Shown: one piece after another, positions 858 to 62,489 of the stretch
How positions within the stretch are numbered: position 1 is the first letter of the stretch
Layout: every line of letters begins with the position of its first letter
Virus record (IMG/VR): IMGVR_UViG_3300048881_000780
Direction: 5' to 3' (one strand)
Source of the DNA: a virus
Lineage: Duplodnaviria > Caudoviricetes
Length of the DNA stretch: 64,000 nt
Notes under the pieces: generated by a model
What the model was told of the DNA's origin: nothing
Database searches by the model: none
Seen by the model: the letters and a program-made list of their open reading frames with translations, nothing else
Position numbers and translations under genes: made by a program

Positions 858-874
858 TTAACATAACACGTTAT
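858..874. promoter_or_regulatory. 17-bp palindromic operator copy
   Basis: TTAACATAACACGTTAT upstream of the virB8-like gene. Confidence 0.55.
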
Positions 875-913
875 TATTATAACCTATTTAGAAACGATAA
901 TTTTTATAGGTGC

Positions 914-1702
914 TTATTTTTCTTCAATAAGTACATCGCGTTTTTTAGCATCACAATAGATAATAGCGGTATCGTTGATCTTGCCAAATCCCATATTTGT
1001 ACTTCCAACAAGTGAATATATTTGACCGCTCTCGTCACGCTTACTCTTGATAATCTTTACTCTCTTCTCGAGTAAATCAACTTCTCTAGCAATTTCAACT
1101 ACTTTACCTTCTCTATCTTTTTGAAATTTCATCTTTCGAACGCATTCACCAGTAATCACAACACTTTTAGCGCTAGATTTTAGTTTTTTTACAAAATTAT
1201 TGGCCTTAGTTAGCTTTTCGATATCCTCACGACACTTAGCAAGCTCTTTTGAAAATCTTTCGCCACTCTCCAACTTGAGCTTATTTCTAAATTTCTTATT
1301 CTCCAGAGATATCCTAATGGCCTCTGCCTTTGAAATAGCATTATATTGAATGTCTTTTAAGTTGCACGTCGTGAGATGAGGATTCTCGTCTACCGTATTT
1401 ATAATAACTTTAATCAAAAAGTCAGTATCATTGATCTTCTCTACATTACTTACTGAGGCCAGGGCATCGGTATAGAGCCTGTCATTATCACAGCGACCAG
1501 TAATTAGAACTGATTTATTGCCAAGTTCACTCTTATAGATAGAAAAAACTGACGTTTTCTTTTCCATATGATCAATTAAATAGGGAATATTTCCCAAAAT
1601 AAGGCCAACTCGATCTGAAATCTTATAACTAGTATCAATATGAGATATGGCCGCAAAGAGAACTGCAAATATATAAACATAGCTTGAATTGAATTTTTTC
1701 AT
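914..1702 (-). CDS. Hypothetical protein with N-terminal hydrophobic segment
   Basis: 262-aa ORF with signal/anchor-like N-terminus. Confidence 0.7.
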   Translation of the reverse strand: MKKFNSSYVYIFAVLFAAISHIDTSYKISDRVGLILGNIPYLIDHMEKKTSVFSIYKSELGNKSVLITGRCDNDRLYTDALASVSNVEKINDTDFLIKVIINTVDENPHLTTCNLKDIQYNAISKAEAIRISLENKKFRNKLKLESGERFSKELAKCREDIEKLTKANNFVKKLKSSAKSVVITGECVRKMKFQKDREGKVVEIAREVDLLEKRVKIIKSKRDESGQIYSLVGSTNMGFGKINDTAIIYCDAKKRDVLIEEK

Positions 1703-1705
1703 CTC

Positions 1706-1975
1706 TTAATCCTCTTTTTCTGGGGTTACTTTCTTTTTCAAATTAAGTCCCTTAACGAACTTAAGCTCCTTTTCTAGGCGCTCACACTGCTTAAGCAAAG
1801 GATTCATTAACTCGCTGATTATAGTTAACAACTCCATGTCATTTTCAATAGTTACGCAACTAATATCTAGCCCATCAGGATTGTAGACACTAACTTGATA
1901 GCCTCCACTCTCCAGTGGTTTCACCTCTTTTAAATAGGAAACTTGAACCTTCTTTAATGATTTATAGTCAGTCAC
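1706..1975 (-). CDS. Hypothetical protein
   Basis: 89-aa ORF, GTG start, co-oriented and 3 bp from the next gene. Confidence 0.6.
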   Translation of the reverse strand: MTDYKSLKKVQVSYLKEVKPLESGGYQVSVYNPDGLDISCVTIENDMELLTIISELMNPLLKQCERLEKELKFVKGLNLKKKVTPEKED

Positions 1976-2063
1976 AAATACTCTCTTGCTTTAAGTTAAT
2001 TCCTATCTATTTTAAATAAATTTGAGCAATAAACTCTTTTTTTCAACAATTTCCTTTCCAAAG

Positions 2064-2080
2064 TTAACACTTGGCGTTAA
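2064..2080. promoter_or_regulatory. 17-bp palindromic operator copy
   Basis: TTAACACTTGGCGTTAA in the divergent promoter region before the A1-like gene. Confidence 0.75.
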
Positions 2081-2126
2081 TATCTAAATAACACAACGCA
2101 ACGCACACGATTTAAGGAATGAAGAC

Positions 2127-4712
2127 ATGAAAATTTTAGCTATGCAATTTGAAGGACTAGTAAGAGCATTTGGTCTAAAGAGTGATAGAAAAGTATTCAA
2201 AAAGATGTTAGATACATCCAAATTTTCACCAAAAGAGATTGAAGAGTTTTCTAAAGTAAAAGTAACTAAAACTGAACTAAAGAAAATGAATACTTCATTT
2301 GCTGAAAAATTTCTAATAAGAACAATGAACGATGCAAATAATTTGCAAGCAGTACTATGTGAAGTCTCTAACTTCTCTATGGGTATCGTCGCTCCGTTTT
2401 TATCATTTTACTCAGATGAAATTTTAGCGCTTATCAGTCAGGCCAGAGAAAGCTACCTAAAAGAGGTGGCCACTAGCACAGTAGAATCTTTTGAAAGAGA
2501 ATTAAGTACTGAAATTGAATATGACGAGAGTATGTTTAATGAAAAAATGATTAACTCTCAAATTCTAGTAGATTCAAACCTTAAAGAGAGAATGGAGAGA
2601 GTTCAAATCATTGAGTGCTTCTTTAAGAAGGCAACCGTAATTAATATTTTAAATACTTCAAATTTAAATTTAAGCGAAATGGCCACAAATGCCTTTGCAA
2701 CTATTGGTGTTACAAATCCTTCAACTATTCAATCTCTAGTTGATAGAATCCAAGATGATATGCCTAGCGAATTTCCTTATATGTTTACACCTAAGGGATC
2801 TTCAATTGAGACATCAATGTACTACAAGGATATAGATAGTATCGCAAGATACGCCAAAAAGATTAGTCCTGAAAAATTTAGAGAGATTACTTCAAAATAT
2901 TATGAACAAATGGTTTCAACATGTTCAAACTTCTATGTTCAAGCATATCGAGCGAAGAAGTACTATGATAAGAATCCAACGAGACAAGAGATTCTTGACC
3001 AGGGGATTTCTTCATCAGACTTTAAAAGATTCTTTGTTAATGCAAAACTAGCGTTCTCACTATCAAGAGTATTTGTACCTGAAGAACTTATCGAAAACTA
3101 CACGCCAGAAGAGTTATGGAATAAAGAAATATCAAATAGAGCCAAAAAGGAAATTAAAGAATGCCAAAGACTTTATATTTCTAGTATGGGTCAAGGTGGC
3201 GTTTCTGAGGATCTTAATACACTTTTATTTATGGCAAAAGTAAATGGTGGAAGAGTATTTCTAATGCCTGTTAAGCACACTGTACACAAGCTTGACCCTA
3301 AAATTTTAAGAATGCACTTACAAGGTGAACTTACAGTTCTTTTTGAAAGTATGAAAATCAATAGTAACCTTTATCTAGATTGCCTAGAAATTAAAGGGAC
3401 AGCTAGAAGACCTCTTAATGGTTTAGATAGCTACCGTGGTGGAAAATTTAAAAGAAACCACGATATGAGAGACAATCCTTCAATTATTATTGCAGGAACA
3501 AAACAAATTTTAAAATCTATTGCCACTGGTGGTACTCGTCACGCTAGAGTTAGCTATACGCCAGGTGCAATCACTAAACCTTTTTATCCATCTAAGACAT
3601 ATATGAAGTCTAAGGCCAATGCGCTAGCAACTGAAGAGCACTTTATGGGAGCTTTAGTTGTAGAAAAAGATGTAAGAGATACATTCCACGTTAGACAATT
3701 AATGTTTCAGGATAATTTCTCTTGTGTTGATATGGGTATTAGATATTTTCAAGATAGAGCGGAAACAACAAATGCTCAATGTGTAGTATACGGTGATATC
3801 CACTCTGATGACCTAGATAGAAAAGCACTTAAACTATTTACAGATTTAGCAGTTTCTCTTGATACTAAAGAATCTGTTATTCAAGATATTTACGATGCGG
3901 CATCTACAAATCCACATGAAGCAAAGAACCAAACTAAGAAAATGGCAACTGCTCTAGAAGGAAAAGCACACGCAAAAGATGAACTGCAACTACTAAGAGA
4001 TGATCTTAACTTCTTTGGAAAGAGATATGAAAAGACTTACATCCCTTACTCAAATCACGATGATATGTTCACTAGAGCATTTAACTCTAATGAAATTAAC
4101 AACAATCCATTCAACGCCATTTTAGCGTCAATCCTTATGCCGATGGCCATTAATACCAACCTAAGACACCACTACTCTTCTGAACAAATTCTAGAGCAAT
4201 GGTCAAAGGGAACTGGTATTAGTAAGAAAGTTCTAAAGAGACAATATCCTTTCTTAGACTCTAAGAAGCAATTACTACAATATGTAATGGAAGATCTTTT
4301 CGAATTAAAGAATCCAGGTAAGTTTAAGTGGTTTGAGCTCTATAGTGAACACAGAATTGGTGGTTACAATGTAGCAGTTCATGGTGATAAAGGTGCAAAC
4401 GGAGCGAGAGGAAGCCATCAGGCCAATTGTAAGATAGATAAGAAACAAATCTCTGGTCACACTCACGTAGCTGCCCAAATGAACCACAATATCAGTGTAG
4501 GCCATCTTCATCAGGTAGAAGGTGGTGTAGGCCCTCAGTACGCCCTAGGAGGCGCCAGCTCTTGGATGCAGACTTGTGTTTACATCTATGAAACGGGAGA
4601 GGCCCAATTGATCACCAATATCAATGGAAGACTACAAAATAATGTTGGTAGACTTACTCCACAAAATTTTAAATCAACTTATAAGAAAAGAATGAAGTCT
4701 CTACAGGCATAG
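2127..4712 (+). CDS. Calcineurin-like metallophosphoesterase, phage T5 A1 protein-like, with long N-terminal extension
   Basis: Motifs GDIH, QDIYD, SNHDD, HGDKGANGARGS, SGHTH and C-terminal GASSW..T...IYETG..QLI match my recollection of the T5 A1 family. Confidence 0.7.
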   Translation: MKILAMQFEGLVRAFGLKSDRKVFKKMLDTSKFSPKEIEEFSKVKVTKTELKKMNTSFAEKFLIRTMNDANNLQAVLCEVSNFSMGIVAPFLSFYSDEILALISQARESYLKEVATSTVESFERELSTEIEYDESMFNEKMINSQILVDSNLKERMERVQIIECFFKKATVINILNTSNLNLSEMATNAFATIGVTNPSTIQSLVDRIQDDMPSEFPYMFTPKGSSIETSMYYKDIDSIARYAKKISPEKFREITSKYYEQMVSTCSNFYVQAYRAKKYYDKNPTRQEILDQGISSSDFKRFFVNAKLAFSLSRVFVPEELIENYTPEELWNKEISNRAKKEIKECQRLYISSMGQGGVSEDLNTLLFMAKVNGGRVFLMPVKHTVHKLDPKILRMHLQGELTVLFESMKINSNLYLDCLEIKGTARRPLNGLDSYRGGKFKRNHDMRDNPSIIIAGTKQILKSIATGGTRHARVSYTPGAITKPFYPSKTYMKSKANALATEEHFMGALVVEKDVRDTFHVRQLMFQDNFSCVDMGIRYFQDRAETTNAQCVVYGDIHSDDLDRKALKLFTDLAVSLDTKESVIQDIYDAASTNPHEAKNQTKKMATALEGKAHAKDELQLLRDDLNFFGKRYEKTYIPYSNHDDMFTRAFNSNEINNNPFNAILASILMPMAINTNLRHHYSSEQILEQWSKGTGISKKVLKRQYPFLDSKKQLLQYVMEDLFELKNPGKFKWFELYSEHRIGGYNVAVHGDKGANGARGSHQANCKIDKKQISGHTHVAAQMNHNISVGHLHQVEGGVGPQYALGGASSWMQTCVYIYETGEAQLITNINGRLQNNVGRLTPQNFKSTYKKRMKSLQA

Positions 4713-7093: not shown

Positions 7094-7124
7094 GTGACTA
7101 TTATAAATTTTTTTAAGGACTAAT

Positions 7125-7346
7125 ATGAGAGTTAAAAAAGCGCTAGAAGATATATCAACACTACCCCAGGCAAGATGGTTTTTTCATTCCTATAAGTCTG
7201 TAATCACTACAGAACAACAAGAGTGTCTACTAATTAGAATTGAAGAGATTAAGTGTTTTTCTAATACACGAGACTGGGAAATAGCAAGTCTTAATGAGCT
7301 CATTGAAGATATCAAGGAAGAATTTAAAGAGTGTTCTTCCAATTAA
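7125..7346 (+). CDS. Hypothetical small protein
   Basis: 73 aa, AAGGA SD upstream, fills the intergenic gap. Confidence 0.55.
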   Translation: MRVKKALEDISTLPQARWFFHSYKSVITTEQQECLLIRIEEIKCFSNTRDWEIASLNELIEDIKEEFKECSSN

Positions 7347-9226
7347 TTATGGGTAACACTCTCAATTCTTTTTGCGTAAATAACATTATTAATATTCATT
7401 CCTCGATAATCACTTCTTAGACATTTAGTTATCTCTACATCTTTTGATATAGTTTTATAAGAAACGATTCCTTCACTAGCAAATGAGATATTATTTATTA
7501 AATCTTCCTCTGATTCGTAAATATCAATGATTGCATTCTTAATGTGATTCGAAAGAGAAGTCTTTGCTTTTCTAATATCTCCAGATAGATCATTGGTATC
7601 TAAGTAATCACTGATAAAATCTCTCGATATCTCAATTTCTCCTCTAACAATCTCAAGACAAGTTGATATTTCACCACCAAGACACTTACTAAATATTGAA
7701 CTAATTTGAGGGGTACCAAGAGGCTTGAATATAAAATCTCTACTTACTCTACTCATAAACTCTGGAGAAAAAGTATTCTTTAATTCATCGTTTCTAATTC
7801 TATCTCTCTTAACTTGTAAACTATCTATACTATTTAATCCAACAAGTTTAGTTCTAGAACTCTCTTTCTCTCCCACATTGGAGGTCATTATGACTATTAA
7901 ATTAGAAGCTGAATAATCACCAACTCGATTATCGTAACCTATACCTGTATCAAGTAACTTTAATAAAATATTTATTATCTCAGGCGGGGCCTTTTCTATT
8001 TCATCAATAAGCAGAATCTTTAATCCAAGTCCGGCCTCTTTTATTTTAATGTGAAGACTTCCACCTCGAGTATCTCCCTCGTAACCCCTAGGAGATCCTA
8101 TAAGGGCCCACGAATCTTCTTTTGTTGTAAAATTATTAAAATCTAACCTAATTAAAGGAATATCTAATGTTTCCTTTAAAATAGTCGCGCTAAATGTTTT
8201 TCCACACCCTGAAGGACCTCTTATTAAGTAAACTCCCACTGGAGCATTATCAGTTGATTTAACTGAGTGCTCTAGAATTCGTAAATCTTTCACTAATTCA
8301 CTTGAGAACTCTCTACAATGCTCCAACTTATTTTTAAGCTCTTTAATTTGATCTTTATTGAATTTAGTTTTTCCAACTTTGAAATTATCATCAACATATT
8401 GAATTAATTTATCTTCTAATTCCTCTTCATCTTCTCTGTCAAAAGAAATTAGAAAATGTATTAATTCATTTAGCTTCATCGCAATAGCTTTCTTTCCTTG
8501 ATAACTGCAATAACTCTTAATAAGTTTGATCGTTGAACTAGAGAAGCTTTTTAAATCAAATTTAAATTGATTTTCATGGTAGCACTTAATCCTATAAGAT
8601 GAATTAAAGTAGTCCCAAATGGCCTGCTCGTCACTTTTAAGTTGAGTAACATAGAATAAATTCAAGAAGTCACTAAATACCTCTTTAATCACCTTACTCT
8701 TCTCTTTGTCACAAAAGATATATATCAAAGACTTTCTATTCTTTAATTCCTTTATGATATCCATTACCTCATTGGAAATTTCTTTAAGTATAAAGAGGTT
8801 ATCATGGGCCTTCTCATCTTGGGCCACTTCAGTGAGAATTGATAAATCTAGAAAAACACAATCCGAATCCAATTGAGATAGAATATCTCTTCTAAATTTA
8901 TTTAAAGTAAGAGATATATTATCACTTCTAAAAGAATTCACATAACTTGAGTAATTCATCTCTACTAAAGAGTCTTCATACTCTATTAAAGTGTTAGTTA
9001 AAACTAGCGACGTACTACATTGAATAGATAGATCAAGAAAATCGATCTTCGTCTCATCCTCTTCGTTAACATGGACTTCATCGCCAATGGCCTCAAATAG
9101 ATTACTTCTTAAATGTTTTGAGATTTTCTTTCTGGCAAATAACTGAGCATCATACTCAACTAACACCCCTTGAACATTCTTATTGTTCAGTCCATCCATG
9201 GACTCTTTAACAATATTTGTTAACAT
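7343..9226 (-). CDS. ClpA/B-family AAA+ ATPase with intact NBD2 and degenerate NBD1
   Basis: GPSGCGKT, LIGSPRGYEG pore loop, LLIDEIEKA, MTSNVG, FSPEFMSRV; no Walker A in the N-terminal half. Confidence 0.85.
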   Translation of the reverse strand: MLTNIVKESMDGLNNKNVQGVLVEYDAQLFARKKISKHLRSNLFEAIGDEVHVNEEDETKIDFLDLSIQCSTSLVLTNTLIEYEDSLVEMNYSSYVNSFRSDNISLTLNKFRRDILSQLDSDCVFLDLSILTEVAQDEKAHDNLFILKEISNEVMDIIKELKNRKSLIYIFCDKEKSKVIKEVFSDFLNLFYVTQLKSDEQAIWDYFNSSYRIKCYHENQFKFDLKSFSSSTIKLIKSYCSYQGKKAIAMKLNELIHFLISFDREDEEELEDKLIQYVDDNFKVGKTKFNKDQIKELKNKLEHCREFSSELVKDLRILEHSVKSTDNAPVGVYLIRGPSGCGKTFSATILKETLDIPLIRLDFNNFTTKEDSWALIGSPRGYEGDTRGGSLHIKIKEAGLGLKILLIDEIEKAPPEIINILLKLLDTGIGYDNRVGDYSASNLIVIMTSNVGEKESSRTKLVGLNSIDSLQVKRDRIRNDELKNTFSPEFMSRVSRDFIFKPLGTPQISSIFSKCLGGEISTCLEIVRGEIEISRDFISDYLDTNDLSGDIRKAKTSLSNHIKNAIIDIYESEEDLINNISFASEGIVSYKTISKDVEITKCLRSDYRGMNINNVIYAKRIESVTHN

Positions 9227-22709: not shown

Positions 22710-22710
22710 C

Positions 22711-51809: not shown

Positions 51810-53900
51810 ATGAAATCACTAAAATCTCCCCAAAAAGTAACTAGAGCTTGCAATAATTTCGAGACCTTAATTAATGACGCCAAAAAAGGAAATTTACTTA
51901 CCAAGGTAACTGTCGAAAGCAAGAAAGTTGAAACAGTGATGGAATTATCTACTCTAGAGGTCATTAAAAAACTATTAAATAATAAAACTATTAGGCCATA
52001 CTCAAAAGAATTTGAAATCATAAAGATGGTTAGTGATGAGGCCAAAGTTCAGGCCTTTGATAGTGATTTTAAAACCCTGGTAAATAGATGTCACTTAATT
52101 AGTGAAAATACACTGGGGATTTTAGAGAAAAGTGCCACTGAAGCAAGGCTTGAGATTAAAAATAAGGCCATTCAAACTTTTTTAAAAGCACTTGAGAAAA
52201 AGAATAAGGTTGGCGAGAAGACTCAAAGCCTGGCCACGAGCTTAATTGGAAAAGGCATCTTGACCAACGTAAAGCTTGAGCGCGACAAAGGATTAGATTA
52301 TATAAAAATCAGCTTTTCAAAATCAATGAAATCTAAAATTGAAAATGAAAGCTTTCTAACTAAAACCCAAAAGAAAACTAAAACTAGAACGTTTAATGCA
52401 AAATTATATATCTCTGAGATAAAAGAAAAAACTAGTGTTTCTCAAGATGTTGAAACTGATGAAAATGGGAAGATTTTAAAAGTTGTCGGAAATAAGAAGA
52501 TAGACTCATCGATTGTTGTAACAATGGAGCTACATAGAGAGAAAGTTAAACTTCCTCTATTTAAAAAAGATCTTACACTAACTGGTTACAATATCTTATC
52601 AAATATTAGCGAGAGTATAGAGTACTTCTCTGACTCTCTTGAAAATAAAACTCCACTAATTACTCTCTTAACTAAGCATTTATTTGTGGGACTATATGAT
52701 CAAGTAAAAGAGTATCAAGAAAAAGAGCTCCAACGACTTGATCTTGGTAATGTTGAAAAAAAGCTCAAAGAAATTATTTTAAGCTCTAAAAGTCTTGAAC
52801 CCCAAGGTTTCTTCTGTCATGAGAAAAAAGATACTCAAGTAGGAGAAATTGCTTACAGAAACCATGATTCTTACAATCAATCAAAAGTCTCTAAGGCCAT
52901 AAGAAGTAGAACTGAGTACGAAAACCACAAAGATTTGGGTGTAAAAGTAACCAAGAAAATGGAGCAAGGAACTAAACTACACCAATTCTTGCTTGAGAGA
53001 GTGAAATTTAAAAACGAAATGATTATTGAAGAAGATTACTCTTTTTCAAAACACCAACTTGAAGTTTTAAAATTATTTAAAAATGTTATTAAAAGAGATG
53101 ATTTAAATAAATTTGAAAATATCCATAAAACAATTACAGAAAGGTATCCCGTTGTATCTCAAATTTTAAAAGAATCACTAAATGAAATTACATTCTTTCA
53201 TCATGACAAAGTTAAATTAACTAAAAATTCAATCAAATCTGGATTATATGATTTAACAGATCATGGTAGACAGGCCGAGTTAACAAACGTAAATGTTGTC
53301 TGTAAAGGAAAGTTAGATATTTACGTTGATAAACCATCAAAGAAGTTAAGAGATCTAATTAATGAGCATCTCGCACCTGAGGGACTAAGACCTCTAGCTG
53401 AAGATGACGTGATCATGGCCGATATAAAGTATACTGCTGATTATATCCCTGAAGATTTTCACTCTAAGAACTTTAAAAACAATCAATTCTACCCGATTCA
53501 GGTAGGACATTACTCCAGGGCCATAGAGGTTATTGATAATAAGAAACTTGCTGACATTAGAGTTTTCTATATTCTAATTGACAGTAAAACTGAGGTTAAC
53601 CCTGAAGTAAATATTTTAGAGATTCCTTATGGTGATGTTGAGTTTTTTGCAAGAAACTATAGAGATCATGTCCTATCTAAGGCCGCACTATTTGACGGAC
53701 TTTTTGACGACTACTTAAAGAAGAAGAAAATTAAAGTTGAATGGTCTAACAAGGGTCGCTTAATCCAATCAATCCCTCTATTTGGTGAACCAGGGGGAGG
53801 TTTTTTAAAGCACGGCAACAATATGGGCCTTGATATAAATGGCACGAATTTAAAAGATAAGAACAACTCGAAGAAAAAAGATCTTAAAAAGGCGAGCTAA
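51810..53900 (+). CDS. PD-(D/E)XK nuclease (RecE/exonuclease VIII, DUF3799-like) with long N-terminal region
   Basis: QGTKLHQFLLE, CKGKLDIY, ADIKYT, YPIQVGHY; ATG at 51810 follows AAAGGA. Confidence 0.75.
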   Translation: MKSLKSPQKVTRACNNFETLINDAKKGNLLTKVTVESKKVETVMELSTLEVIKKLLNNKTIRPYSKEFEIIKMVSDEAKVQAFDSDFKTLVNRCHLISENTLGILEKSATEARLEIKNKAIQTFLKALEKKNKVGEKTQSLATSLIGKGILTNVKLERDKGLDYIKISFSKSMKSKIENESFLTKTQKKTKTRTFNAKLYISEIKEKTSVSQDVETDENGKILKVVGNKKIDSSIVVTMELHREKVKLPLFKKDLTLTGYNILSNISESIEYFSDSLENKTPLITLLTKHLFVGLYDQVKEYQEKELQRLDLGNVEKKLKEIILSSKSLEPQGFFCHEKKDTQVGEIAYRNHDSYNQSKVSKAIRSRTEYENHKDLGVKVTKKMEQGTKLHQFLLERVKFKNEMIIEEDYSFSKHQLEVLKLFKNVIKRDDLNKFENIHKTITERYPVVSQILKESLNEITFFHHDKVKLTKNSIKSGLYDLTDHGRQAELTNVNVVCKGKLDIYVDKPSKKLRDLINEHLAPEGLRPLAEDDVIMADIKYTADYIPEDFHSKNFKNNQFYPIQVGHYSRAIEVIDNKKLADIRVFYILIDSKTEVNPEVNILEIPYGDVEFFARNYRDHVLSKAALFDGLFDDYLKKKKIKVEWSNKGRLIQSIPLFGEPGGGFLKHGNNMGLDINGTNLKDKNNSKKKDLKKAS

Positions 53901-54316
53901 TGGAATATATTAAGCACGCCGCGATTAGGTCAGTAAATGGACTTATTATAAAAGGAAAGAGTCACTCTAAATGTTTTAAAAACATGAATAAATCATTTGG
54001 TGAAGTTGAATCGTCAGGCTTTTTAACTAGTGATAATCGCTATGTTAATAGAAAAGAAGGCGCCGTCATTGCTTTTAAAGCAAATCAAATTAGAAAGGAG
54101 ATAAAAATTCTCTCATCTGAGCACCTATGGTGTCCAACTTATCAAGGTGAATTTAACTATTGTCACGAAAATGGATATGTAAAGAGAGGAAATCTACAAG
54201 AAGAGATTGAATCGATCCTACATCCTTGTAATTCTACTTATAAGTGTAGTCGAGAAAAAACGGCCAAGAGAATTATAATGAAGCTACAAGAATTAAATAT
54301 TTTAAATAGAGAGTAG
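53900..54316 (+). CDS. Phage-like hypothetical protein
   Basis: GFLTSDNRYVNRKEG...LSSEHLW; translationally coupled. Confidence 0.65.
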   Translation: MEYIKHAAIRSVNGLIIKGKSHSKCFKNMNKSFGEVESSGFLTSDNRYVNRKEGAVIAFKANQIRKEIKILSSEHLWCPTYQGEFNYCHENGYVKRGNLQEEIESILHPCNSTYKCSREKTAKRIIMKLQELNILNRE

Positions 54317-54318
54317 TT

Positions 54319-54816
54319 ATGAGTTTTAAAGATTATCCAATTGGTTCTCACTGGGCAAATGAATCTGGACTCATTTATGAGTTAATTTTAAATGGTGAAA
54401 TTACCGATTTTAGAGATGGTCATCCATTCATTTATCCATCATGCACCCTAAGAGAGCTTAATGGCAAAAAAACTATAACCGTTCCTTGCGCTAATATGGA
54501 ATCAATTCTATTTAGAACTGTTCTTCCAAAGCTACCTGATGATCACCAAGAGATGCTCAAAAGTAGCCTTGAATTATTCTCAAAGGCGCTAGATATGGCC
54601 AGCGAGGGGAAGTATACATCCAATAAGGAAATGCAATATAAAATAGAAGTGGCCGCAGAAAATCTAAGCTCATCTTACTTGGATCTTACATTTAGAGGTG
54701 ACGATAGTGGTTATTGTCATGAACAAACGATGGATTTTCTTAAATCATATACTAAGTACATCATCATACATTTAGAAGTTCTCAAATCTATAAAAAAGGA
54801 TGATAAGAGCGCCTAG
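54319..54816 (+). CDS. Hypothetical protein
   Basis: 165-aa operonic ORF. Confidence 0.65.
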   Translation: MSFKDYPIGSHWANESGLIYELILNGEITDFRDGHPFIYPSCTLRELNGKKTITVPCANMESILFRTVLPKLPDDHQEMLKSSLELFSKALDMASEGKYTSNKEMQYKIEVAAENLSSSYLDLTFRGDDSGYCHEQTMDFLKSYTKYIIIHLEVLKSIKKDDKSA

Positions 54817-56705
54817 AAGTCTAATTTAGGAGCCTCTCCCTCTTCTTTATTTTCAATCTGGTCTTCTTCACTAGATTCAGAGCTACCTTTTATTAAGTCA
54901 TCAGCAAGAGAACCAGAAGGATTCTCTTCTTTCTTTATCTGATCAAGTACCTCTGGGTCAGCTAGTACTAGGTCTTTATATAAACTATTGTAAAAGTTCT
55001 CTTTTCTATTTTCTTTCTCATTATCTATAAATCTAGCATGAGTAAGTAAGTCATCTAATCTTAAATCAAAGAAATTAGATGCCTCTTCTCCTTTAGGAGT
55101 GGTATTTCTCTTAAGAGGGGAAATATCTTGAAAAGAAACAGATACTAGACCTTTAATAGTAATATCTTTATCAGCGTGCATTTCTCGTACATATGACTGA
55201 GCTTGGTTTACTAGTTTTTTATAATCAAAGGTTTTTTCTTCAAAGAAACTACTGGCCTTCATTCTTGGTTTAAGAGTTATATAAGCGTAGTATTCTCCTC
55301 CTCTAGAGCAAATACCATTTATATCAAAACTGGCATTAGGAATTTCTTCTGTTTCAAAGCCAAAGTAGTTAATTAGTCTCTTGGCCATAAATGGGATATC
55401 TTCCAAGAAGATTTTAGAGTTATTTAATACCCCTTCAAAAGGGAAGTTATTAATTAAATACTCTAATCCTTCACTGGCCATGGCCTCTTTATATTCATTT
55501 GCTTTGTGACTTAGAAGCATTCCTCTAAACTTTGGTACATCTTTATTTAGTTTATAAAATAATTCATCAGTAATAAATGGAAACTGAAATAATCCCTCAC
55601 GACTGTAACCTCTTCCTTTAATTGGGCCCAACTCAGCCGCAACCTCAAGATTAAAACCTGAAGATAGAGAAGCATTTGTCACTCTGTGAGACAAAGGATT
55701 TAAAAGTCCGGCCTTAAGATCTGTTGGTATCTCAGCGCTGGATGCACTCTGAGTAATTATAATAAGATCCATCATTGCAGATCTTCCCTCTTTGGCAACA
55801 CGCTTTAAAATATTAGCGATTGTACCAACACGGTCTTTATTGTCTATAAATGACATTTCATCAGAGTTAATTATCGCGTGAAACTCTTCCATCACTACAA
55901 CAAATAAGGCCACGGGAGGAAGAGGCTCTAGATTTCTCATTCTTTCAATACTTTCAGAATGAACGCTTCGGCCCTTTTTTATATCTTTAAAAGAATCGTG
56001 AATATCTTCATCCCACTCAAGTACATTGGCATCAATTTGAATATTGAAAAGCTCAAGTAAATTAGATTCAACTAAGATCGTATTCTTAGTTGTATCTGGT
56101 CTACTCTTGGAGTAGTGCATTTTTTCACTTTGATTATCCTTGTATACGTAGAGCTCTTCACCTTCAAGAGATTTAAGATCTAGAGATTCACTACTCAGTT
56201 TTGGGTATAGGTGTTCATTAAATGCTTGTCTATAGATCTCTAGATTCTTCTCGTAAGTGTACACATTATTAGAAGACCAAAGAGTAAAGAATTTATGACC
56301 TCTGGCGTTCATCTCATTTTCAATCATATAGAACATTGAAAATAATTTTCTCTTATCTCTAACCGCCGCCGCCGCGTTATCTAAATTTAAAACTTTATTG
56401 TAATCACCCATTGCCTTATCTGACATATCAATCATAGCAAAGAAAGTGGCCTCTCCACTTGTCAGCTGTAATGTATCAACAATTCCTCTACCAGTAATAG
56501 ACTTACCAGAACCCATACTACCAACAATACCAATACCAGGCTCTTCCACCGGATCTTTTGTCACAAAACCATTGGCACTCTCCCCAATTCCCAGAAAGAA
56601 TGTTCTAAAGTGTTTCGGATTTTTTACATATTCTATAAACGCACTCTTATCGATTCGATTCGGTTGATATTTTCCCTCAAAGAGAAACTTAAATGGATTT
56701 TTCAT
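54813..56705 (-). CDS. FtsK/SpoIIIE-family ATPase with Mrr-like C-terminal segment
   Basis: GSMGSGKS, EMNARG, VVVMEEFH, KEGRSAMMDLIIITQ, KGRG; no TM anchor. Confidence 0.75.
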   Translation of the reverse strand: MKNPFKFLFEGKYQPNRIDKSAFIEYVKNPKHFRTFFLGIGESANGFVTKDPVEEPGIGIVGSMGSGKSITGRGIVDTLQLTSGEATFFAMIDMSDKAMGDYNKVLNLDNAAAAVRDKRKLFSMFYMIENEMNARGHKFFTLWSSNNVYTYEKNLEIYRQAFNEHLYPKLSSESLDLKSLEGEELYVYKDNQSEKMHYSKSRPDTTKNTILVESNLLELFNIQIDANVLEWDEDIHDSFKDIKKGRSVHSESIERMRNLEPLPPVALFVVVMEEFHAIINSDEMSFIDNKDRVGTIANILKRVAKEGRSAMMDLIIITQSASSAEIPTDLKAGLLNPLSHRVTNASLSSGFNLEVAAELGPIKGRGYSREGLFQFPFITDELFYKLNKDVPKFRGMLLSHKANEYKEAMASEGLEYLINNFPFEGVLNNSKIFLEDIPFMAKRLINYFGFETEEIPNASFDINGICSRGGEYYAYITLKPRMKASSFFEEKTFDYKKLVNQAQSYVREMHADKDITIKGLVSVSFQDISPLKRNTTPKGEEASNFFDLRLDDLLTHARFIDNEKENRKENFYNSLYKDLVLADPEVLDQIKKEENPSGSLADDLIKGSSESSEEDQIENKEEGEAPKLDF

Positions 56706-56831
56706 AATTTACCTCATTATTATTATATTTTTTTTGAGGTAATGATTTTGTTAGCTAAGTAGCTTAAATATGGTGAATTATTTTTCTAGATATTTGAAAG
56801 AAACCACTCGAGGTTAGACTATAATATAATT

Positions 56832-56904
56832 ACAGAGAGACAATAACGTCTCCTCCTGTCTTGTTGTTTTACTAAATCCCTCTTATTTTAAGAGGGATTT
56901 TTTT
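56832..56904 (+). ncRNA. Candidate small RNA
   Basis: Tandem TATAAT at 56820-56830, hairpin GAGAC-AATAAC-GTCTC, CTCCTCCT, + strand terminator; no + strand ORF. Confidence 0.35.
56874..56904 (+). terminator. Intrinsic terminator
   Basis: AAATCCCTCTTA-TTT-TAAGAGGGATTT-TTTT. Confidence 0.85.
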
Positions 56905-56907
56905 GGA

Positions 56908-57486
56908 CTAGATATCAAAAATATCTCTTCTTAGAAGTTTTAAATAATTAAAGCAGAAACTAAGTGGATCTCTTCTCTCTTCAATTAATTTAAATGAATC
57001 CTTTTTTTTGAAAATCATCAATGGATGAAGTAATTCTTTAAATTCTTTTAAATAGAGAGATGAGAAATCTATTATATTGTAGTGAAACTTAGGATGAGAA
57101 GAAATGTGATTCATCCCATGTCTTGATAATTCCTTAAAGCAGAATCTAGATAGCGAGCGCCCTAGTAGGTAAATGCCTTCATTGTCACAACTATTAATAT
57201 CTTCATTACTCATAAAGTCACTAAATCTAGTTTTTAACTCTTCTGGAGCAATTAGCTCATAAGTTCTTTGCTCACCTTTTAAAATCTTCTGGTACCAATT
57301 GTAATGCATTTTATGGGCCTTATCTTCCCAGTTAATATCCTCATCGTACTTAAAGGCCAAACAAAGACGAGGTTGATCAGTAAGTTTACCAACTCCAGTA
57401 TCAAATACCATCGATAGACCTAGAATCCTAGATTCACTTGATAGTCCTGAGGTTGCAATTTTTAATACCATAACTGGTTTTCTCAT
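56908..57486 (-). CDS. DnaQ-like 3'-5' exonuclease fold, catalytic residues apparently lost
   Basis: VMVLKIATSGL in place of hhhDxETTGL; GRSLSRFC in place of GxNxxFD. Confidence 0.5.
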   Translation of the reverse strand: MRKPVMVLKIATSGLSSESRILGLSMVFDTGVGKLTDQPRLCLAFKYDEDINWEDKAHKMHYNWYQKILKGEQRTYELIAPEELKTRFSDFMSNEDINSCDNEGIYLLGRSLSRFCFKELSRHGMNHISSHPKFHYNIIDFSSLYLKEFKELLHPLMIFKKKDSFKLIEERRDPLSFCFNYLKLLRRDIFDI

Positions 57487-58088
57487 TAACTGGCCTTCTT
57501 AACTTCGAATAATTCGCGATTTAAATTCTCTGCTAAATCATCATTAACATCACCATCGCTAATTATTTTTATATTTATATTATCTTTTTTAAAGTCGCCT
57601 CGATTATACATTTCCATAAATGTTTTTCGAGTATCAGCTCTTTGGTCTCGAAGAGAGTCATTGCCAGCTCCATGAGATCTAAGAAGATCATCTGATACTG
57701 CAAAATAAACAACACTCATATCGACACTAATCCCTCTAGTTTTTAACATATCGATCGTGTCATTAATGGCCTCTGGGGTTGCTACAAAAATTCCAGTGGT
57801 CTCACTATTGATTAAATCTTCATAGAGATGCATTTCAGTACCATAGATATTTCCACCATATTCAACAGATTGAAGGAATCTATCGTTTTCAAGTTTTTTG
57901 AGCATTTCAATTCTATCTCTGAAAAAGTAGTGAATACCATCTTTCTCTCCTTCCCTCATTTTTCTAGAAGTTGAAGAAATGATTCTCTTAAAGTTTCCTA
58001 TTTTTAAAAGTCTTTCCTGTAAATGTGTTTTCCCACAATAAGAAGGACCTACTAGAATTAACATTTTTATTAGATTTTCTGTGTGCAT
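57486..58088 (-). CDS. gmk: Guanylate kinase-like protein
   Basis: GPSYCGKT, ISSTSRKMREGEKDGIHYFF, YGGNIYGT. Confidence 0.85.
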   Translation of the reverse strand: MHTENLIKMLILVGPSYCGKTHLQERLLKIGNFKRIISSTSRKMREGEKDGIHYFFRDRIEMLKKLENDRFLQSVEYGGNIYGTEMHLYEDLINSETTGIFVATPEAINDTIDMLKTRGISVDMSVVYFAVSDDLLRSHGAGNDSLRDQRADTRKTFMEMYNRGDFKKDNINIKIISDGDVNDDLAENLNRELFEVKKAS

Positions 58089-58110
58089 AAATGCTCCTTT
58101 ATTTACAATT

Positions 58111-58127
58111 ATAACACACGGCGTTAA
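58111..58127. promoter_or_regulatory. 17-bp operator overlapping -10
   Basis: ATAACACACGGCGTTAA. Confidence 0.75.
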
Positions 58128-58177
58128 TAAATAGAAGCACTATTAAATAACTTAAAATAGTAAAAATAGGAGCATTT

Positions 58178-58492
58178 ATGAAATTTGAAATTACAGATAT
58201 CGAGAACTTTCTAAGTAACCAAAAATTCAACAAGAAAGATGACAATTTCTTCTTTAAGGGAGAGTTAAGCGGATATCTCATTAAGGTAGAAATTTTAAAT
58301 AATCTAATATCAGTGCAATTCAACCTAAGAGAACATGAGTTTTCAAAAACTTATAACTTAAATGATGCTAAATCTATTAGAAACTTCTATATTAACACTA
58401 CAGAAGTCGTTAGAATGTCTCATGTAATAGAAGGATCATTTACTACTATGGCAAATGCTATTTTTTCAATTGAAGATATCTTAAGGAAGTAA
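58178..58492 (+). CDS. Hypothetical protein
   Basis: 104 aa with AGGAG SD. Confidence 0.7.
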   Translation: MKFEITDIENFLSNQKFNKKDDNFFFKGELSGYLIKVEILNNLISVQFNLREHEFSKTYNLNDAKSIRNFYINTTEVVRMSHVIEGSFTTMANAIFSIEDILRK

Positions 58493-58493
58493 A

Positions 58494-58518
58494 AAATGGC
58501 CTCAGAGAGAGGCCATTT
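58494..58518. terminator. Bidirectional terminator
   Basis: AAATGGCCTC-AGAGA-GAGGCCATTT between convergent genes. Confidence 0.85.
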
Positions 58519-58525
58519 ATAGATT

Positions 58526-59122
58526 CTAAGCTCTTAATTCGTTAAATATACTAGTTAGGACTTTATAACTTAAGTTAACGTCATATTCTTCCATCAGAAG
58601 GCCAGGCTCATATCTTACGACTCCTACAACGGCCTTAACAATGCGATCTTCCGCATCTTGAGTAAGCGTAACTCCAGCTAGCTCAAAAATATCAGAAAAG
58701 TACTCTCTTCTAAAAGTTGTCTCGTAATCATGTAGGTTAATATTTTCAGAGATGATTCGCTCCCTTCCCACTACTCGAGAAAGAACTTCAATACTTAGCT
58801 CATCAACACTTCTATCTCTATTCTTAGATGGAACGACTACTCTACCCTTTACTGGCATTACTCTTTTTGAACTATTGGCCACAGGAAGCTTAACTCCGTC
58901 CTCTGGCTTAACTCTTGGGTCAATTGTCCCCATAGCAGACGCTTTTCTTAATTTGTTGAATTTTTCACTCTTATCTACTGAAAGACATTTAGTCTTACCT
59001 GTTAGTAGCTTATGAATTCCCGTATGGTGAAAACCTAGGTGTCTAGCAACCATAGCTCCTGAAACATCATACTCATTCATAAATGCTTTAATTTCTTCTT
59101 TTGTTGTTCTTGGTGTTTCCAT
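58526..59122 (-). CDS. XRE/Cro-like HTH protein, candidate global regulator
   Basis: EIKAFMNEYDVSGAMVARHLGFHHTGIHKLLTGK; operator copy upstream. Confidence 0.65.
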   Translation of the reverse strand: METPRTTKEEIKAFMNEYDVSGAMVARHLGFHHTGIHKLLTGKTKCLSVDKSEKFNKLRKASAMGTIDPRVKPEDGVKLPVANSSKRVMPVKGRVVVPSKNRDRSVDELSIEVLSRVVGRERIISENINLHDYETTFRREYFSDIFELAGVTLTQDAEDRIVKAVVGVVRYEPGLLMEEYDVNLSYKVLTSIFNELRA

Positions 59123-59168
59123 TGTTTTCTCCGTTAAGTGTGTGTTATATTTAATGTGTATTTAAATA

Positions 59169-59185
59169 ATAACACCTTGCGTTAA
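59169..59185. promoter_or_regulatory. 17-bp palindromic operator copy
   Basis: ATAACACCTTGCGTTAA upstream of the HTH gene. Confidence 0.75.
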
Positions 59186-59204
59186 CTTTGCCAACAACAG
59201 GAAA

Positions 59205-61448
59205 TTATTTCAGATAAAAACCTTCATTATCTGTGTAATTTAAGGTCATTACATCACTTAATTTCGCACTTTCTTCCATTTTTGAAATAATTGCTTCACT
59301 TAGAACACGAGAGACCGCCTTTTCAATATCGCGCCCCCCATAGTTGATAAAATTACTACTCTTTAAAATCTCATCTACTGCAATATCTGTTGGATTAATC
59401 TGCCATTTACCATTAGTTAATTTCTTAATTTTTGAAAATAGAATCTCTCTGGCCACATCTTCATCAATACCATTAAAGTAAACAATCTTATCGATTCTAC
59501 CCATGACTTCAGGTTTAAAGTACTTGTAAATCTCAGAGCTATCTACCTCGTGAGAGCTCTTTTCTTTATTTTCTGCAAGAGATATAGAGTTTCTCTTCTT
59601 TTTACCTGTTCCTAAATTTGTAGTTAGAAAAACCATACAATTAGAAAAATCTGTAACCTTTCCTGTTGAACTTGTTAGTCTGGCCGATCCTAAAATCTGT
59701 AATAGTATATTTTGAAAGTCTGGATGGGCCTTTTCTACTTCATCAAATAAAATAATGGATCTTGGGTGTTTTTCTATTTCATTAGTTAGAATACCACCCT
59801 GATCAAATCCTGCGTAACCTGGAGGAGCACCAATTAACTTGGATATACTGTGTTTTTCCTCATATTCTGATAAATCAAATCTTACGAAATGAAAATCATC
59901 CATTTTTGATAATTCTAATACTGTGGCAGTTTTACCAACCCCTGATTTTCCTGCAAGAATAAAATTACCCAAAGTTGTATTTTCAACGTCACCAAGACCA
60001 ACTTCTTTAACCATTATGGACTTAGTTATCTCATCAATATTTAGATCTTGACCTTTTATTACATCTTTTAAATGATTTGAACGTAAATCTCTTTTCTCGC
60101 TAAGTGAAAGGTTGTGGTCTTTTATTTTCTTGTTAGAAAGTTTTTCAATACAAGAGTTTATATGCTCAATCTGAACTGCTTCTTCATTTTTTAATTTTGC
60201 CATAGCGAAACTATTATCTAATACATCAATAGCAACATCTGGCATCACTCTATCTAAAAAGTATTTTGGAGTGGTTTTAATTATATATTCAATATTTTCA
60301 TCTGAGCATTTAAGGGAGTGAAAGTTAGATAAATCTGTACTTCTATCATTAATAATATTCTTTACCACACTTTCACCCGGTGGATTTAGACTAAGCATAG
60401 AGAAACGCCTTTTAAACGCCTCGTCTTTATTAAAGTGCTTTAGATACTCATCTTCCGTCGTACATCCAATAATGATCAAATCACTCTCTTTTAAATGCGG
60501 TTTAAATAAATCCATTAAAGGTGGTGAATTAACTCCCCCTACAGAAGTAAGTGAGTGAATCTCATCAATAAAGAGAATGATCTTTCCATGAGTCTTAGTC
60601 ATTTCATTTAATTCTTTAAATAATGACTCTACTCTACCTTCAATTTCACCTCTCATCATAGTTCCGGCCATAAATGAGGCCATACTAAATTCAAATATTT
60701 TAGTATTAGCATCAAGACTTGTTTTAGAATCTCTCACTTTATTAAAGAATCCATAACAAAAACTAGTCTTACCAATTCCCGCTTGACCAACCACAATCGC
60801 GTTTTTCTTATATTTTCTAAGGCAGATAAACTCAAGTTCACTCTCCTCTTCCCTAGAAGTAAATTCTTGATGTCTAGTGTACTCTGTTAGAAACGACAAT
60901 TTCTTATCACTTTTTTCTTGAGCATCTCCACTATTTGAGCTTTTATTGACCCTCTTATTAAGTTCAATTGCCAATTGATTCGCTCTATCTAGAACTTTTT
61001 TATTATTTAATAAACGACCAAGAACAGTCATATCGCTAATAAGTCTTGCATGAGTGGCAACTGATATAATATTAATATTTTTTGGATCACCAAATTTAAG
61101 AATTGTATTCATTAAATAAGAGGACTCTGTATTCATAGAAGCGATATACTTCATACCTTTCTCTTTTCTTAAACTATCTGGATAGACAGGGTCACTCTTA
61201 GTGGCCTCAATCTTAGCTTCCATTTCTTCTAACGTAAGAATCTTCTTAGCTGAGTTTTCAATTCTTTCTTGAATAATTTTTCTAACACTAGTCAGATCAA
61301 CACCCGTTAATAGATAATCTTGAACAAAGGCACTCTCTAAAAAGGCCATGCCTATTACATCTATATCAATATTTGCAAAATAGTACTTATTGCAAATTTC
61401 ATGGGATCTTACTAGTAGGTCATAAATTGTTGTAATATCTTTTCTCAT
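59205..61448 (-). CDS. ClpA/B-family AAA+ ATPase with two NBDs and no M-domain
   Basis: GQAGIGKT, LFIDEIH, AFKRRF; GKSGVGKT, LIGAPPGYAG, FDEVEKAH. Confidence 0.92.
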   Translation of the reverse strand: MRKDITTIYDLLVRSHEICNKYYFANIDIDVIGMAFLESAFVQDYLLTGVDLTSVRKIIQERIENSAKKILTLEEMEAKIEATKSDPVYPDSLRKEKGMKYIASMNTESSYLMNTILKFGDPKNINIISVATHARLISDMTVLGRLLNNKKVLDRANQLAIELNKRVNKSSNSGDAQEKSDKKLSFLTEYTRHQEFTSREEESELEFICLRKYKKNAIVVGQAGIGKTSFCYGFFNKVRDSKTSLDANTKIFEFSMASFMAGTMMRGEIEGRVESLFKELNEMTKTHGKIILFIDEIHSLTSVGGVNSPPLMDLFKPHLKESDLIIIGCTTEDEYLKHFNKDEAFKRRFSMLSLNPPGESVVKNIINDRSTDLSNFHSLKCSDENIEYIIKTTPKYFLDRVMPDVAIDVLDNSFAMAKLKNEEAVQIEHINSCIEKLSNKKIKDHNLSLSEKRDLRSNHLKDVIKGQDLNIDEITKSIMVKEVGLGDVENTTLGNFILAGKSGVGKTATVLELSKMDDFHFVRFDLSEYEEKHSISKLIGAPPGYAGFDQGGILTNEIEKHPRSIILFDEVEKAHPDFQNILLQILGSARLTSSTGKVTDFSNCMVFLTTNLGTGKKKRNSISLAENKEKSSHEVDSSEIYKYFKPEVMGRIDKIVYFNGIDEDVAREILFSKIKKLTNGKWQINPTDIAVDEILKSSNFINYGGRDIEKAVSRVLSEAIISKMEESAKLSDVMTLNYTDNEGFYLK

Positions 61449-61643
61449 ACCCCTATTTTAAAAATCCAAGAGTGGGAATATTAAAAAATTAAAACGTAAA
61501 GCACTGATAATTCATAATATAAAAATTATTTTTTTTAAAATAAAGGCCAAAACTCTCTCTATTGAGTCCCAAAGACAACAATGGAGAGTTTTATGAAATT
61601 GAAAATTAACGTAGTGATCAAAGTGACAATTAGAGTTGAGGTG

Positions 61644-61883
61644 CTAATCTCTATCTTCTTTGTGCATTTGGTAGAACTCTTCTCTATCCTCATTAGTTAG
61701 AGGGTGAGAACCTTTGTCAATATTTAGCAATTGGGTATAGAACTCTAAACAAGTTAATATGCGTGAGTGCTCTGGTTTAGATGAGTCTAGTTGATGATCC
61801 AGAAGTTCTCTTATATGAGATTCATCTACTTTACTTATCTTCGCATACATTTTTATGAATTTGTTTTTTTGAGACTTATTCAT
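61644..61883 (-). CDS. Hypothetical protein
   Basis: 79-aa ORF. Confidence 0.5.
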   Translation of the reverse strand: MNKSQKNKFIKMYAKISKVDESHIRELLDHQLDSSKPEHSRILTCLEFYTQLLNIDKGSHPLTNEDREEFYQMHKEDRD

Positions 61884-61900
61884 GATTAAGAAAGATATAT

Positions 61901-61927
61901 AAAGGGGATAATTTTGTTATCCCCTTT
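61901..61927 (-). terminator. Terminator after ssb
   Basis: AAAGGGGATAA-TTTTG-TTATCCCCTTT. Confidence 0.85.
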
Positions 61928-61939
61928 TAACTATTTAAG

Positions 61940-62374
61940 TTACCAATCTACTGGGCCATTACCACCTTCATCTTGAGCTGGCATATCAGAAGAATAATCT
62001 GGTGCCTGCTCTGGTGCTTGAGAATTAGACTTTTCACCATTAGCACTTGCCCCACTAAGAAATTGGATATTTCTAGCGTTTATTTCAGTGGTATATCTCT
62101 TACTTCCATCTTGACCTTCCCAAGATCTAGTTTGCAAAGACCCCTCGACAAAGGCCTGTTTTCCTTTACTTAAATATTGATTACAAAGCTCTGCAAGCTT
62201 TCCCCAAACAACCACTCTGTGCCATTCCGTCTTTTCTTGCTTTTGACCACTTTTATCGGCCCAAGATTCACTCGTAGCTAGGGAGAAATTACAAACCGCC
62301 GCACCAGATGGTGTGTACTTAAGTTCAGGGTCAGTTCCCAGTCTTCCTAGAATCATTACTTTATTTACAGACAT
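61940..62374 (-). CDS. ssb: Single-stranded DNA-binding protein
   Basis: [32 protein letters not shown]; acidic tail ending VDW rather than IPF. Confidence 0.97.
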
Positions 62375-62472
62375 TTAGATACTCCTTGATAACGGGTACA
62401 ACTTGAGAAACCCGCTAAATTAATATTGTGTCTATTAGATTATAACACAATTGTCACATTATACATAATTAT

Positions 62473-62489
62473 TTAACACATTTCGTTAA
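62473..62489. promoter_or_regulatory. 17-bp palindromic operator copy
   Basis: TTAACACATTTCGTTAA upstream of ssb. Confidence 0.7.

Follow-up and report, generated by a model that had tools for sequence, protein, structure and literature searches.

The OR and OL operators of phage lambda are 17-bp pseudo-palindromes of 7+3+7 layout. On the plasmid RK2/RP4 (IncP-1), the OA sites recognized by the repressor KorA overlap the -10 element, and korA is autoregulated. KorA is a small dimeric helix-turn-helix (HTH) protein whose symmetric OA operator is present at several promoters; within the KorA/KorB/TrbA network, it brings the genes for replication, transfer and inheritance of one plasmid under common control (PMC2665229). 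In a third system, that of HsdC of Mycoplasma gallisepticum, the half-site GTGTTAA overlaps a promoter (TGTGTTAAAAT) of the form TRTGNTAWAAT, which is the promoter consensus of that low-GC bacterium; repression was inferred by the authors (PMC5282649). Here, we describe a 17-bp palindrome, WTAACRC-N3-GYGTTAW, that recurs in 14 promoter regions of a 64,000-nucleotide stretch of DNA (the window) from the IMG/VR record IMGVR_UViG_3300048881_000780. The source contig is a 361-kb, plasmid-like sequence of 33% GC from a deep-sea hydrothermal-vent metagenome. The sequence read comprises 64 of these 361 kb, and the statements on the regulon and its regulator cover this window.

The palindrome is probably the operator of one dimeric HTH regulator that represses by occlusion. 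It resembles the KorA system in that one symmetric operator lies at several backbone-gene promoters and, judged by sequence, overlaps the core promoter. However, the RK2 operator is 12 bp long (GTTTAGCTAAAC) and occupies seven promoters, whereas the palindrome is 17 bp long (7+3+7) and is present in 14 copies in 64 kb. In addition, no second cooperating operator is seen in the window, and the half-site doubles as an extended -10 element. The palindrome shares with lambdoid and XRE immunity operators the 7+3+7 layout, half-sites one helical turn apart, and symmetric conservation. The HsdC sites, in contrast, are direct rather than inverted repeats and belong to a single restriction-modification promoter, not to a regulon. 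As a real promoter-embedded operator, the site would join the master repressor systems already known from plasmids and phages, with KorA/OA nearest in function and the lambdoid operators nearest in layout.

Enrichment of the palindrome in intergenic DNA

The window contains 66 gene calls covering 88.4% of its length. The non-coding fraction is 11.6%, and the intergenic DNA amounts to 7.4 kb with 29% GC. Each of the 14 starts listed in the original prediction, which was made by reading the sequence, holds a match to WTAACRC-N3-GYGTTAW. For the core TAAC-N7-GTTA, 11 copies are found where 1.24 are expected, and none of 100 shuffles contains as many as 11. The 17-mer with up to two mismatches is found 15 times, where 1.85 copies are expected.

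The copies are concentrated between genes. With at most one mismatch allowed, 10 copies are intergenic and none is coding, and dinucleotide-preserving shuffles of the intergenic DNA alone yield a mean of 0.03. With at most two mismatches, there are 13 intergenic and two coding copies, a 50-fold difference in density, and the same shuffles yield a mean of 0.34 (maximum 3). An origin by chance, or as a low-complexity artefact, would find some support in the AT-rich arms and the low GC content of the intergenic DNA, but is refuted by these counts and retains a negligible probability. The two coding matches, at 9207 and 28584, are as many as chance predicts. Intergenic DNA contains 22 half-sites GYGTTAW, most of them arms of the 14 palindromes, and no truly coding half-site has a partner arm with fewer than three mismatches. 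The coding-region background, which the original prediction had left open, has thus been examined, and the motif is neither frequent in open reading frames (ORFs) nor reproduced by shuffled AT-rich intergenic DNA.

The coding match at 9207-9223 is a near-perfect palindrome (TTAACAATATTTGTTAA) in codons 2-7 of an AAA+ (ClpA/B-like) gene, 7343-9226. The C7/G11 pair is missing from this palindrome, which could be a chance match or a weak downstream operator. A further copy at 61927 adjoins the ssb terminator and is for this reason probably not a site.

The 14 copies, with their distances to the neighboring genes, are as follows.

858-874, two mismatches; 19 nt before the ATG of 119-838 (minus strand), a gene for a 239-aa protein of no Pfam or PHROGs family
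2064-2080, perfect, in a divergent region; 46 nt before 2127-4712 (plus strand), encoding a T5-A1-like DNA transfer protein (phrog_1745, E 1.3e-60), and 88 nt before 1706-1975 (minus strand)
11052-11068, one mismatch, right arm TGTTATAAT; before the RecD2-like helicase gene 11079-13244 (plus strand)
15934-15950, one mismatch; 57 nt before the pentapeptide-repeat protein gene 15088-15876 (minus strand)
19583-19599, two mismatches; 61 nt before 18538-19521 (minus strand)
33644-33660, two mismatches; 30 nt before a 94-aa gene, 33691-33975 (plus strand)
37976-37992, one mismatch, fused to TGTTATAAT; before a leaderless 67-aa lipoprotein gene (minus strand, true start 37966)
40274-40290, three mismatches, the weakest copy, with distal arm CTGACAG; 38 nt before recJ, 38595-40235 (minus strand)
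48084-48100, perfect, fused to GTGTTAAAAT; before the leaderless DUF2227 gene 47339-48073 (minus strand)
48983-48999, one mismatch; between a terminator at 49014-49033 and the leaderless ATG of the RuvC-like gene 48331-48972 (minus strand)
51755-51771, one mismatch, serving both directions; 8 nt from the ATG of a 144-aa gene, 51312-51746 (minus strand), with a 711-aa gene on its other side (plus strand, probable start 51810)
58111-58127, perfect, fused to TGTGTTATAAT; 22 nt before the guanylate-kinase-like gene 57486-58088 (minus strand), from which a 104-aa gene, 58178-58492 (plus strand), diverges
59169-59185, perfect, the best-scoring copy of the window; in the promoter TTGGCA-17-TATTAT (59194-59166, TG-extended) of the P0001 gene
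62473-62489, one mismatch; 98 nt before ssb, 61940-62374 (minus strand)

The placement of all copies upstream of gene starts, as originally proposed, holds once two ORF starts are moved. The true start of ORF 37763-38008 is 37966, and ORF 51765-53900 probably starts at 51810.

Position of the palindrome on the promoter

Each site was oriented toward its nearest downstream gene before profiling. Among the 14 oriented sites, C5 and G13 are invariant, and T15 and A16 are likewise found in all 14. T2, A4 and T14 are each present in 13 sites, and A3 is present in 12. Positions 6 and 12 vary independently, with eight G.T, three A.C and three A-T combinations and no G-C pair, and the folding energies of the sites lie between 0 and -3.6 kcal/mol. 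The arms are therefore read as sequence and not as a stem. A hairpin, cruciform or RNA element was rejected, given the lack of Watson-Crick covariation, the weak energies and the location of sites upstream of leaderless starts. A restriction-modification target was also discarded, since such sites would be expected to become depleted by selection, not positioned on promoters. Sites of the parS or KorB type were rejected because their half-sites are arranged differently.

The two arms are not equivalent. T12 is present in 11 of 14 proximal arms, compared with six of 14 distal arms, so that the gene-proximal arm reads TRTG-n-TA. Together with the bases that follow, the proximal arm forms TGTGTTATAAT, GTGTTAAAAT or GTGTTATTAT, each an extended -10 element (TRTG-n-TAWAAT) whose hexamer occupies positions 15-20. 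On the proximal side, these positions match TATAAT at a mean of 4.5 out of 6 bases, versus 3.4 out of 6 on the distal side.

The start codons lie at matching distances. Five genes, at 11079 (plus strand) and at 37966, 48073, 48972 and 51746 (minus strand), lack a Shine-Dalgarno sequence and begin 8-10 nt after the site. In these genes, 5-7 nt separate the hexamer from the ATG, whose A is 6-8 bp away from the hexamer, a spacing that leaderless mRNAs would be expected to show; in the RecD2-like gene, the ATG follows TATAAT by 7 nt. The site at 48983 fills the 35 bp between the intrinsic terminator and the ATG of the RuvC-like gene, which places the core promoter of this gene within the site itself. 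At 59169, a promoter scan returns TTGGCA-17-TATTAT with a TG extension, and the hexamer falls exactly on positions 15-20. These observations agree with the proposal that the motif overlaps the -10 hexamer, and the palindrome would span about -26 to -10 of sigma-70-type promoters. The -35 hexamers are weak at most sites, and the distal arm, at a distance of only 8 bp, is too close to the -10 hexamer to act as a -35 element. A generic scan for sigma-70 patterns is uninformative in such AT-rich DNA, with 78 matches against 79 expected.

The extended -10 accounts for the proximal arm only. It had been considered beforehand that this element might fully explain the right arm of the motif, but the distal arm is an inverted copy of the proximal arm and falls outside it. 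The symmetry might alternatively arise as a by-product of bidirectional promoters, in which two extended -10 elements stand back to back and no dedicated protein is involved. Eight of the 14 sites are indeed located in divergent regions, and several carry TAnnnT on both flanks. However, the six sites between co-directional genes have distal arms that are at least as well conserved, with a mean of 0.5 mismatches compared with 0.75 in the eight divergent contexts, indicating that the distal arm does not owe its presence to a divergent promoter. Moreover, plain leaderless promoters show no such symmetry, and neither the fixed 3-bp spacer nor the invariant C5 and G13 are promoter features. Such a by-product is very improbable.

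The conservation extends beyond the palindrome. In the oriented sites, position 22, 5 nt past the site end, is T in 13 of 14 cases, and position 19, 2 nt past the end, is A in 11 of 14. This exceeds what a -10 hexamer at positions 15-20 predicts and might be due to a different register or to an extended contact. At site 858, TATAAT at 876-881 adjoins the palindrome just upstream, and the site may cover about -6 to +11, that is, the transcription start.

Lone GTGTTAT half-sites are found 17-31 bp from full copies, at 2088-2094, 40257-40263, 59142-59148 and 62442-62448. Two of them coincide with TGTGTTATAAT promoters, and the lone half-sites may represent auxiliary sites or second promoters. One such promoter, at 40251-40261, is a second promoter of recJ that lacks a distal arm. 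Between site 62473 and ssb, there are two promoters without a distal arm, TGTATAAT and TGTGTTATAAT (62436-62446).

In the mechanism that we favor, the palindrome forms part of the core of sigma-70-type promoters with an extended -10. Its gene-proximal arm would supply the TRTG-n-TA of the extended -10 together with the first two bases of the hexamer, and the distal arm would be an inverted copy located in the spacer. One monomer would bind each arm, as the half-site centers are about 11 bp, or one helical turn, apart. The bound dimer would then occupy the region from about -26 to -10 and exclude RNA polymerase from the promoter. We infer both the binding of a protein and its action as a repressor rather than an activator. 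A MerR-type site was rejected, as the dyad center at about -18 overlaps the -10 element and the spacer, at the one clear -35, is 17 bp and not 19-20 bp.

Units with and without the palindrome

The palindrome is present in about 14 of roughly 34 promoter-bearing gaps (about 40%). As the original prediction held, it ties DNA-processing and transfer genes together, being found on the RecD2, SNF2, RecJ, RuvC, SSB, A1-like and VirB4/TraC units. Pfam and PHROGs scans of 65 window ORFs, corresponding to 63 of the 66 gene calls, bear out the names RecD2, SNF2, RecJ, RuvC, gmk, SSB and T5-A1-like DNA transfer protein, and give no support to the virB8-like, RdgC-like, RecE-like, polymerase and chaperone-usher assignments. 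The units bearing the site also comprise gmk, the lipoprotein, the pentapeptide-repeat protein, P0001, a type IV secretion system (T4SS)-like operon and several unknown families. The regulon is hence not restricted to DNA-damage functions, as a LexA/SOS regulon would be. The SOS-like control that had been suggested finds no support either, as no S24 or M78 peptidase turns up among the ORFs scanned. The derepression on entry into a naive host that had also been proposed is conjecture. In the proposed mechanism, one switch would couple recombination, repair, replication, nucleotide supply and a type IV secretion-like operon.

Several of these sites head longer units. The RecD2-like gene is followed by 13247-14314, which encodes a phrog_4756 protein, and then by 14377-14889, which encodes an HTH_3 protein. 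The lipoprotein gene precedes an 83-aa gene, a 320-aa gene and the SNF2 helicase gene 35111-36550 (minus strand). The DUF2227 gene heads a run that contains the VirB4/TraC-like gene 42191-45685. Downstream of site 19583, 18538-19521 (minus strand) is followed by 16245-18533, and neither product belongs to a known family. Other neighbors of the sites possess promoters of their own. The 578-aa gene that diverges from site 33644 (start 33548) has a leaderless promoter. The operon at 19753 (plus strand), 153 nt from site 19583, begins with a TAAAAT-N6-ATG promoter; this operon, called chaperone-usher in the original prediction, had been linked to the site, which is 150 bp from the operon's own leaderless promoter.

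A block of toxin-antitoxin genes at 21612-28370 (about 21.6-28.4 kb) has eight intergenic regions, none of which carries the palindrome. It includes the following modules.

23143-23556, an Xre/MbcA/ParS-type antitoxin
24584-25615 and 23812-24612, AbiEi/AbiEii
26548-26862 and 26258-26548, HigB(Gp49)/HigA(HTH_37)

A second class of promoter is also devoid of the palindrome. Its hexamer, TATAAT or TAAAAT (TAWAAT), is located exactly 6 nt before the ATG, with no Shine-Dalgarno sequence and no TG, and its spacers are AT-rich or consist of an A-tract. The hexamers of this class, with the starts of the genes they head, are listed below.

7099-7105 (minus strand), gene at 7093
19741-19746 (plus strand), gene at 19753
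33555-33560 (minus strand), gene at 33548
38098-38103 (plus strand), gene at 38110
40322-40327 (plus strand), gene at 40334
61455-61460 (minus strand), ClpB-like gene at 61448

In related promoters, an A- or T-tract frequently precedes the hexamer directly (e.g., 6185, 10917 and 56727). Because the toxin-antitoxin block and at least six leaderless TAWAAT-N6-ATG promoters lack the palindrome, it is a regulon marker and not the general promoter of the element. The toxin-antitoxin modules and the second promoter class would stand outside the switch.

The existence of two distinct promoter classes raises the question of whether the palindrome is instead a positive element, read by an element-encoded specificity factor such as an altered sigma factor or a dimeric activator bound beside RNA polymerase. 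The promoters bearing it would then be active only in the presence of this factor and make up a class of their own next to the plain TAWAAT-N6-ATG promoters. The TG-T extension occurs almost exclusively in or beside operator contexts (seven of nine cases), the -35 hexamers are weak as noted above, and promoters with a half-site only exist both in the window (TGTGTTATAAT at 40251-40261 and 62436-62446) and in the plasmid pBdHM1 (CGGTATAT; see below), all of which would suit such a factor. However, the elements that sigma factors recognize are asymmetric, and the distal arm repeats the proximal one exactly in inverted orientation. With its center at -18, a dimer overlaps the -10 element and would clash with the polymerase, and known activators bind at -41.5 or further upstream or, like MerR, act on 19-20-bp spacers, compared with 17 bp here. 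In addition, an identical 17-mer occurs in phages, within an immunity region and adjacent to genes for a repressor and a protease. A positive role is thus quite unlikely, and repression by occlusion is the reading retained in the following.

The candidate regulator and related elements

The best local candidate for the regulator is encoded next to the top-scoring copy of the palindrome.

58526-59122 (minus strand), P0001, candidate regulator of 198 aa with a predicted HTH-like N-terminal domain and a predicted dimerising C-terminal domain

The P0001 gene is monocistronic, is closed by a terminator at 58494-58518 and has a 37-nt CA-rich leader. The leader region, 59123-59160 (ATAACACACACTTAACGGAG...), contains two direct TAAC-type half-sites. 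The AlphaFold2 model of P0001 has a mean predicted local distance difference test (pLDDT) score of 65 and consists of three N-terminal helices, a disordered, basic linker (residues 44-99) and a confident C-terminal domain. Residues 2-44 align in VIA-align with DNA-bound HTH domains, those of a mycobacteriophage immunity repressor (Z 5.7, root mean square deviation (rmsd) 2.8 over 42 residues) and of KorB (Z 5.3, rmsd 1.9 over 39 residues), with middling values. Foldseek returns weak XRE and HigA rows with E >1, and the Atlas look-alikes are all phage-type HTH regulators with scores <0.9.

A homodimer model of residues 100-198 attains an ipSAE of 0.58, compared with 0.12 for the best control. 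The contacts agree by at least 94% between runs, and the partner pLDDT is at least 73. The mark used for this dimer score is reached by 20 of 30 known homo-pairs and one of 23 single chains, counts that are approximate here, since a custom two-row alignment was used. The model supports rather than demonstrates a symmetric homodimer formed by residues 100-198, and the predicted architecture suits a reader of palindromes.

Several points count against the operator reading and against P0001 as its regulator. The -10 register is deduced from sequence and leaderless geometry, and T22 (13 of 14) could signal a different register at some sites. Since the arm is an extended -10, part of its conservation is promoter conservation. 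The presence of the palindrome on the P0001 promoter is weak evidence, as about 40% of promoters carry one. P0001 falls below every Pfam threshold, and an exhaustive search of 1.8 billion representatives yields one remote homolog, P0003. No homolog of P0001 is found in plasmid collections, among PDB sequences or in pBdHM1. The true regulator may be encoded elsewhere on the element, of which the window covers 64 of 361 kb, or in the host. That P0001 is the repressor is therefore possible but doubtful.

A word-indexed search with P0001 retrieves only P0001 itself. P0003 contains two N-terminal HTH-like repeats, one of which matches HTH_26 at E 1.1e-3, below the cutoff. A profile of P0001 and P0003 gives a marginal match (E 0.057) to the pBdHM1 HTH_17 protein 65391-65897, generic to HTH domains only. 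No homologs of KorA, KorB or TrbA are detected by Pfam among the 65 window ORFs scanned.

The only catalogued relative of the element is pBdHM1 of Bdellovibrio sp. HM001 (AP029175.1, 161 kb, 48.7% GC), linked to it by a VirB4/TraC-like protein of 23-24% identity. A megablast search with 42000-62000 against phage and plasmid collections gives no match, and tblastn with SSB and RecD2 returns generic matches only. Relatives of P0003, of the 578-aa protein and of the pBdHM1 TraC were not found in metagenome, genome or viral collections. Fragments identical to window 47573-63915 are present in a second hydrothermal-vent metagenome from a different study (run X2), which suggests that the element or its host is present in more than one sample. 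As the fragments are identical, they contain no informative variation. Rfam families and tRNAs are absent from the window.

pBdHM1 possesses its own palindrome, ATAYC-N6-GRTAT, with 15 exact copies compared with 0.15 in shuffles, and about 45 matrix matches compared with 2.5. It is intergenic and element-wide (e.g., 28194, 70235, 82309 and 91436), and we found no description of it. The two palindromes share several features. The half-site TACC resembles TAAC, and the half-site centers are again about 11 bp apart. In nine of the 15 copies, a TATAnT-like hexamer begins with the TAT at the end of one arm or of both, which puts the dyad center at about -17.5, compared with -18 in the element studied here. 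The sites precede homologs of the A1-like gene, the 578-aa gene, the traC operon and ssb, and half-site-only promoters (CGGTATAT) exist. However, the pBdHM1 palindrome has another sequence and is shorter by 1 bp, and neither pBdHM1 nor the window carries the motif of the other. No regulator shared between pBdHM1 and the window genes was found.

The two elements might share a lineage-specific master switch, in which one regulator family, with an operator composed of an extended -10 and an inverted copy centered at -18, has co-diverged with its word (TAAC to TACC, 1 bp less) and kept the same targets. We regard this as unlikely. Such a switch could insulate or synchronise the whole backbone of these self-replicating giant plasmids, and it might confer promoter specificity instead of being a plain repressor.

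The regulator may also be encoded by the host, for instance a LexA-type SOS repressor recruited by the element. LexA boxes differ between phyla, the targets include ssb, ruvC, recJ and recD2, and no convincing regulator was found in the window. On the other hand, the T4SS-like operon, gmk, the lipoprotein, the pentapeptide protein and many genes of unknown family are also covered, and numerous plasmid sites would titrate a host repressor. To our knowledge, the motif matches no LexA box. The different palindrome of pBdHM1 in the same geometry fits regulators that travel with their elements, and a host regulator has only a slim chance of being the answer.

Perfect copies of the 17-mer in viral contigs are mostly single chance matches, with no -10 enrichment in their flanks. 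Real-looking operator clusters are seen only in the contigs L119 and L121, and perhaps in L078, L115 and L120. L119 and L121 are related phage contigs from IMG/VR, and each contains three copies of TTAACAC-N3-GTGTTAA within about 190 bp.

L121, 1684-1873, operator cluster
L119, 1998-2190, operator cluster

The copies lie between a divergent HTH_3 repressor gene, accompanied by a Peptidase_M78 (ImmA/IrrE-like) gene, and a Cro-like gene, and one copy is inside a TTGACT-17-TAAAAT promoter. The arrangement looks like a phage immunity switch with an identical 17-mer. In the phages, the operators are clustered in threes at one locus, whereas those of the element are single and dispersed over many promoters. 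No homolog of either phage regulator was detected in the window, nor was a protease partner. We accordingly interpret the identical 17-mer as a case of convergence toward the extended -10.

The element, an orphan plasmid-like replicon of 361 kb, has genes of its own for replication and repair. With one operator on many promoters, its replication, recombination and transfer functions would hang on a single switch. The 17-bp sequence provides a bait, and thereby a handle for finding the regulator and for mapping promoters and the many leaderless genes. Two features are noteworthy, the identity of the half-site with an extended -10 and a geometry common to the different palindrome of a distant relative. 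By this design, any strong promoter could join the regulon by gaining one inverted copy. The design recurs in pBdHM1 of a cultured relative, where it is open to bench testing.

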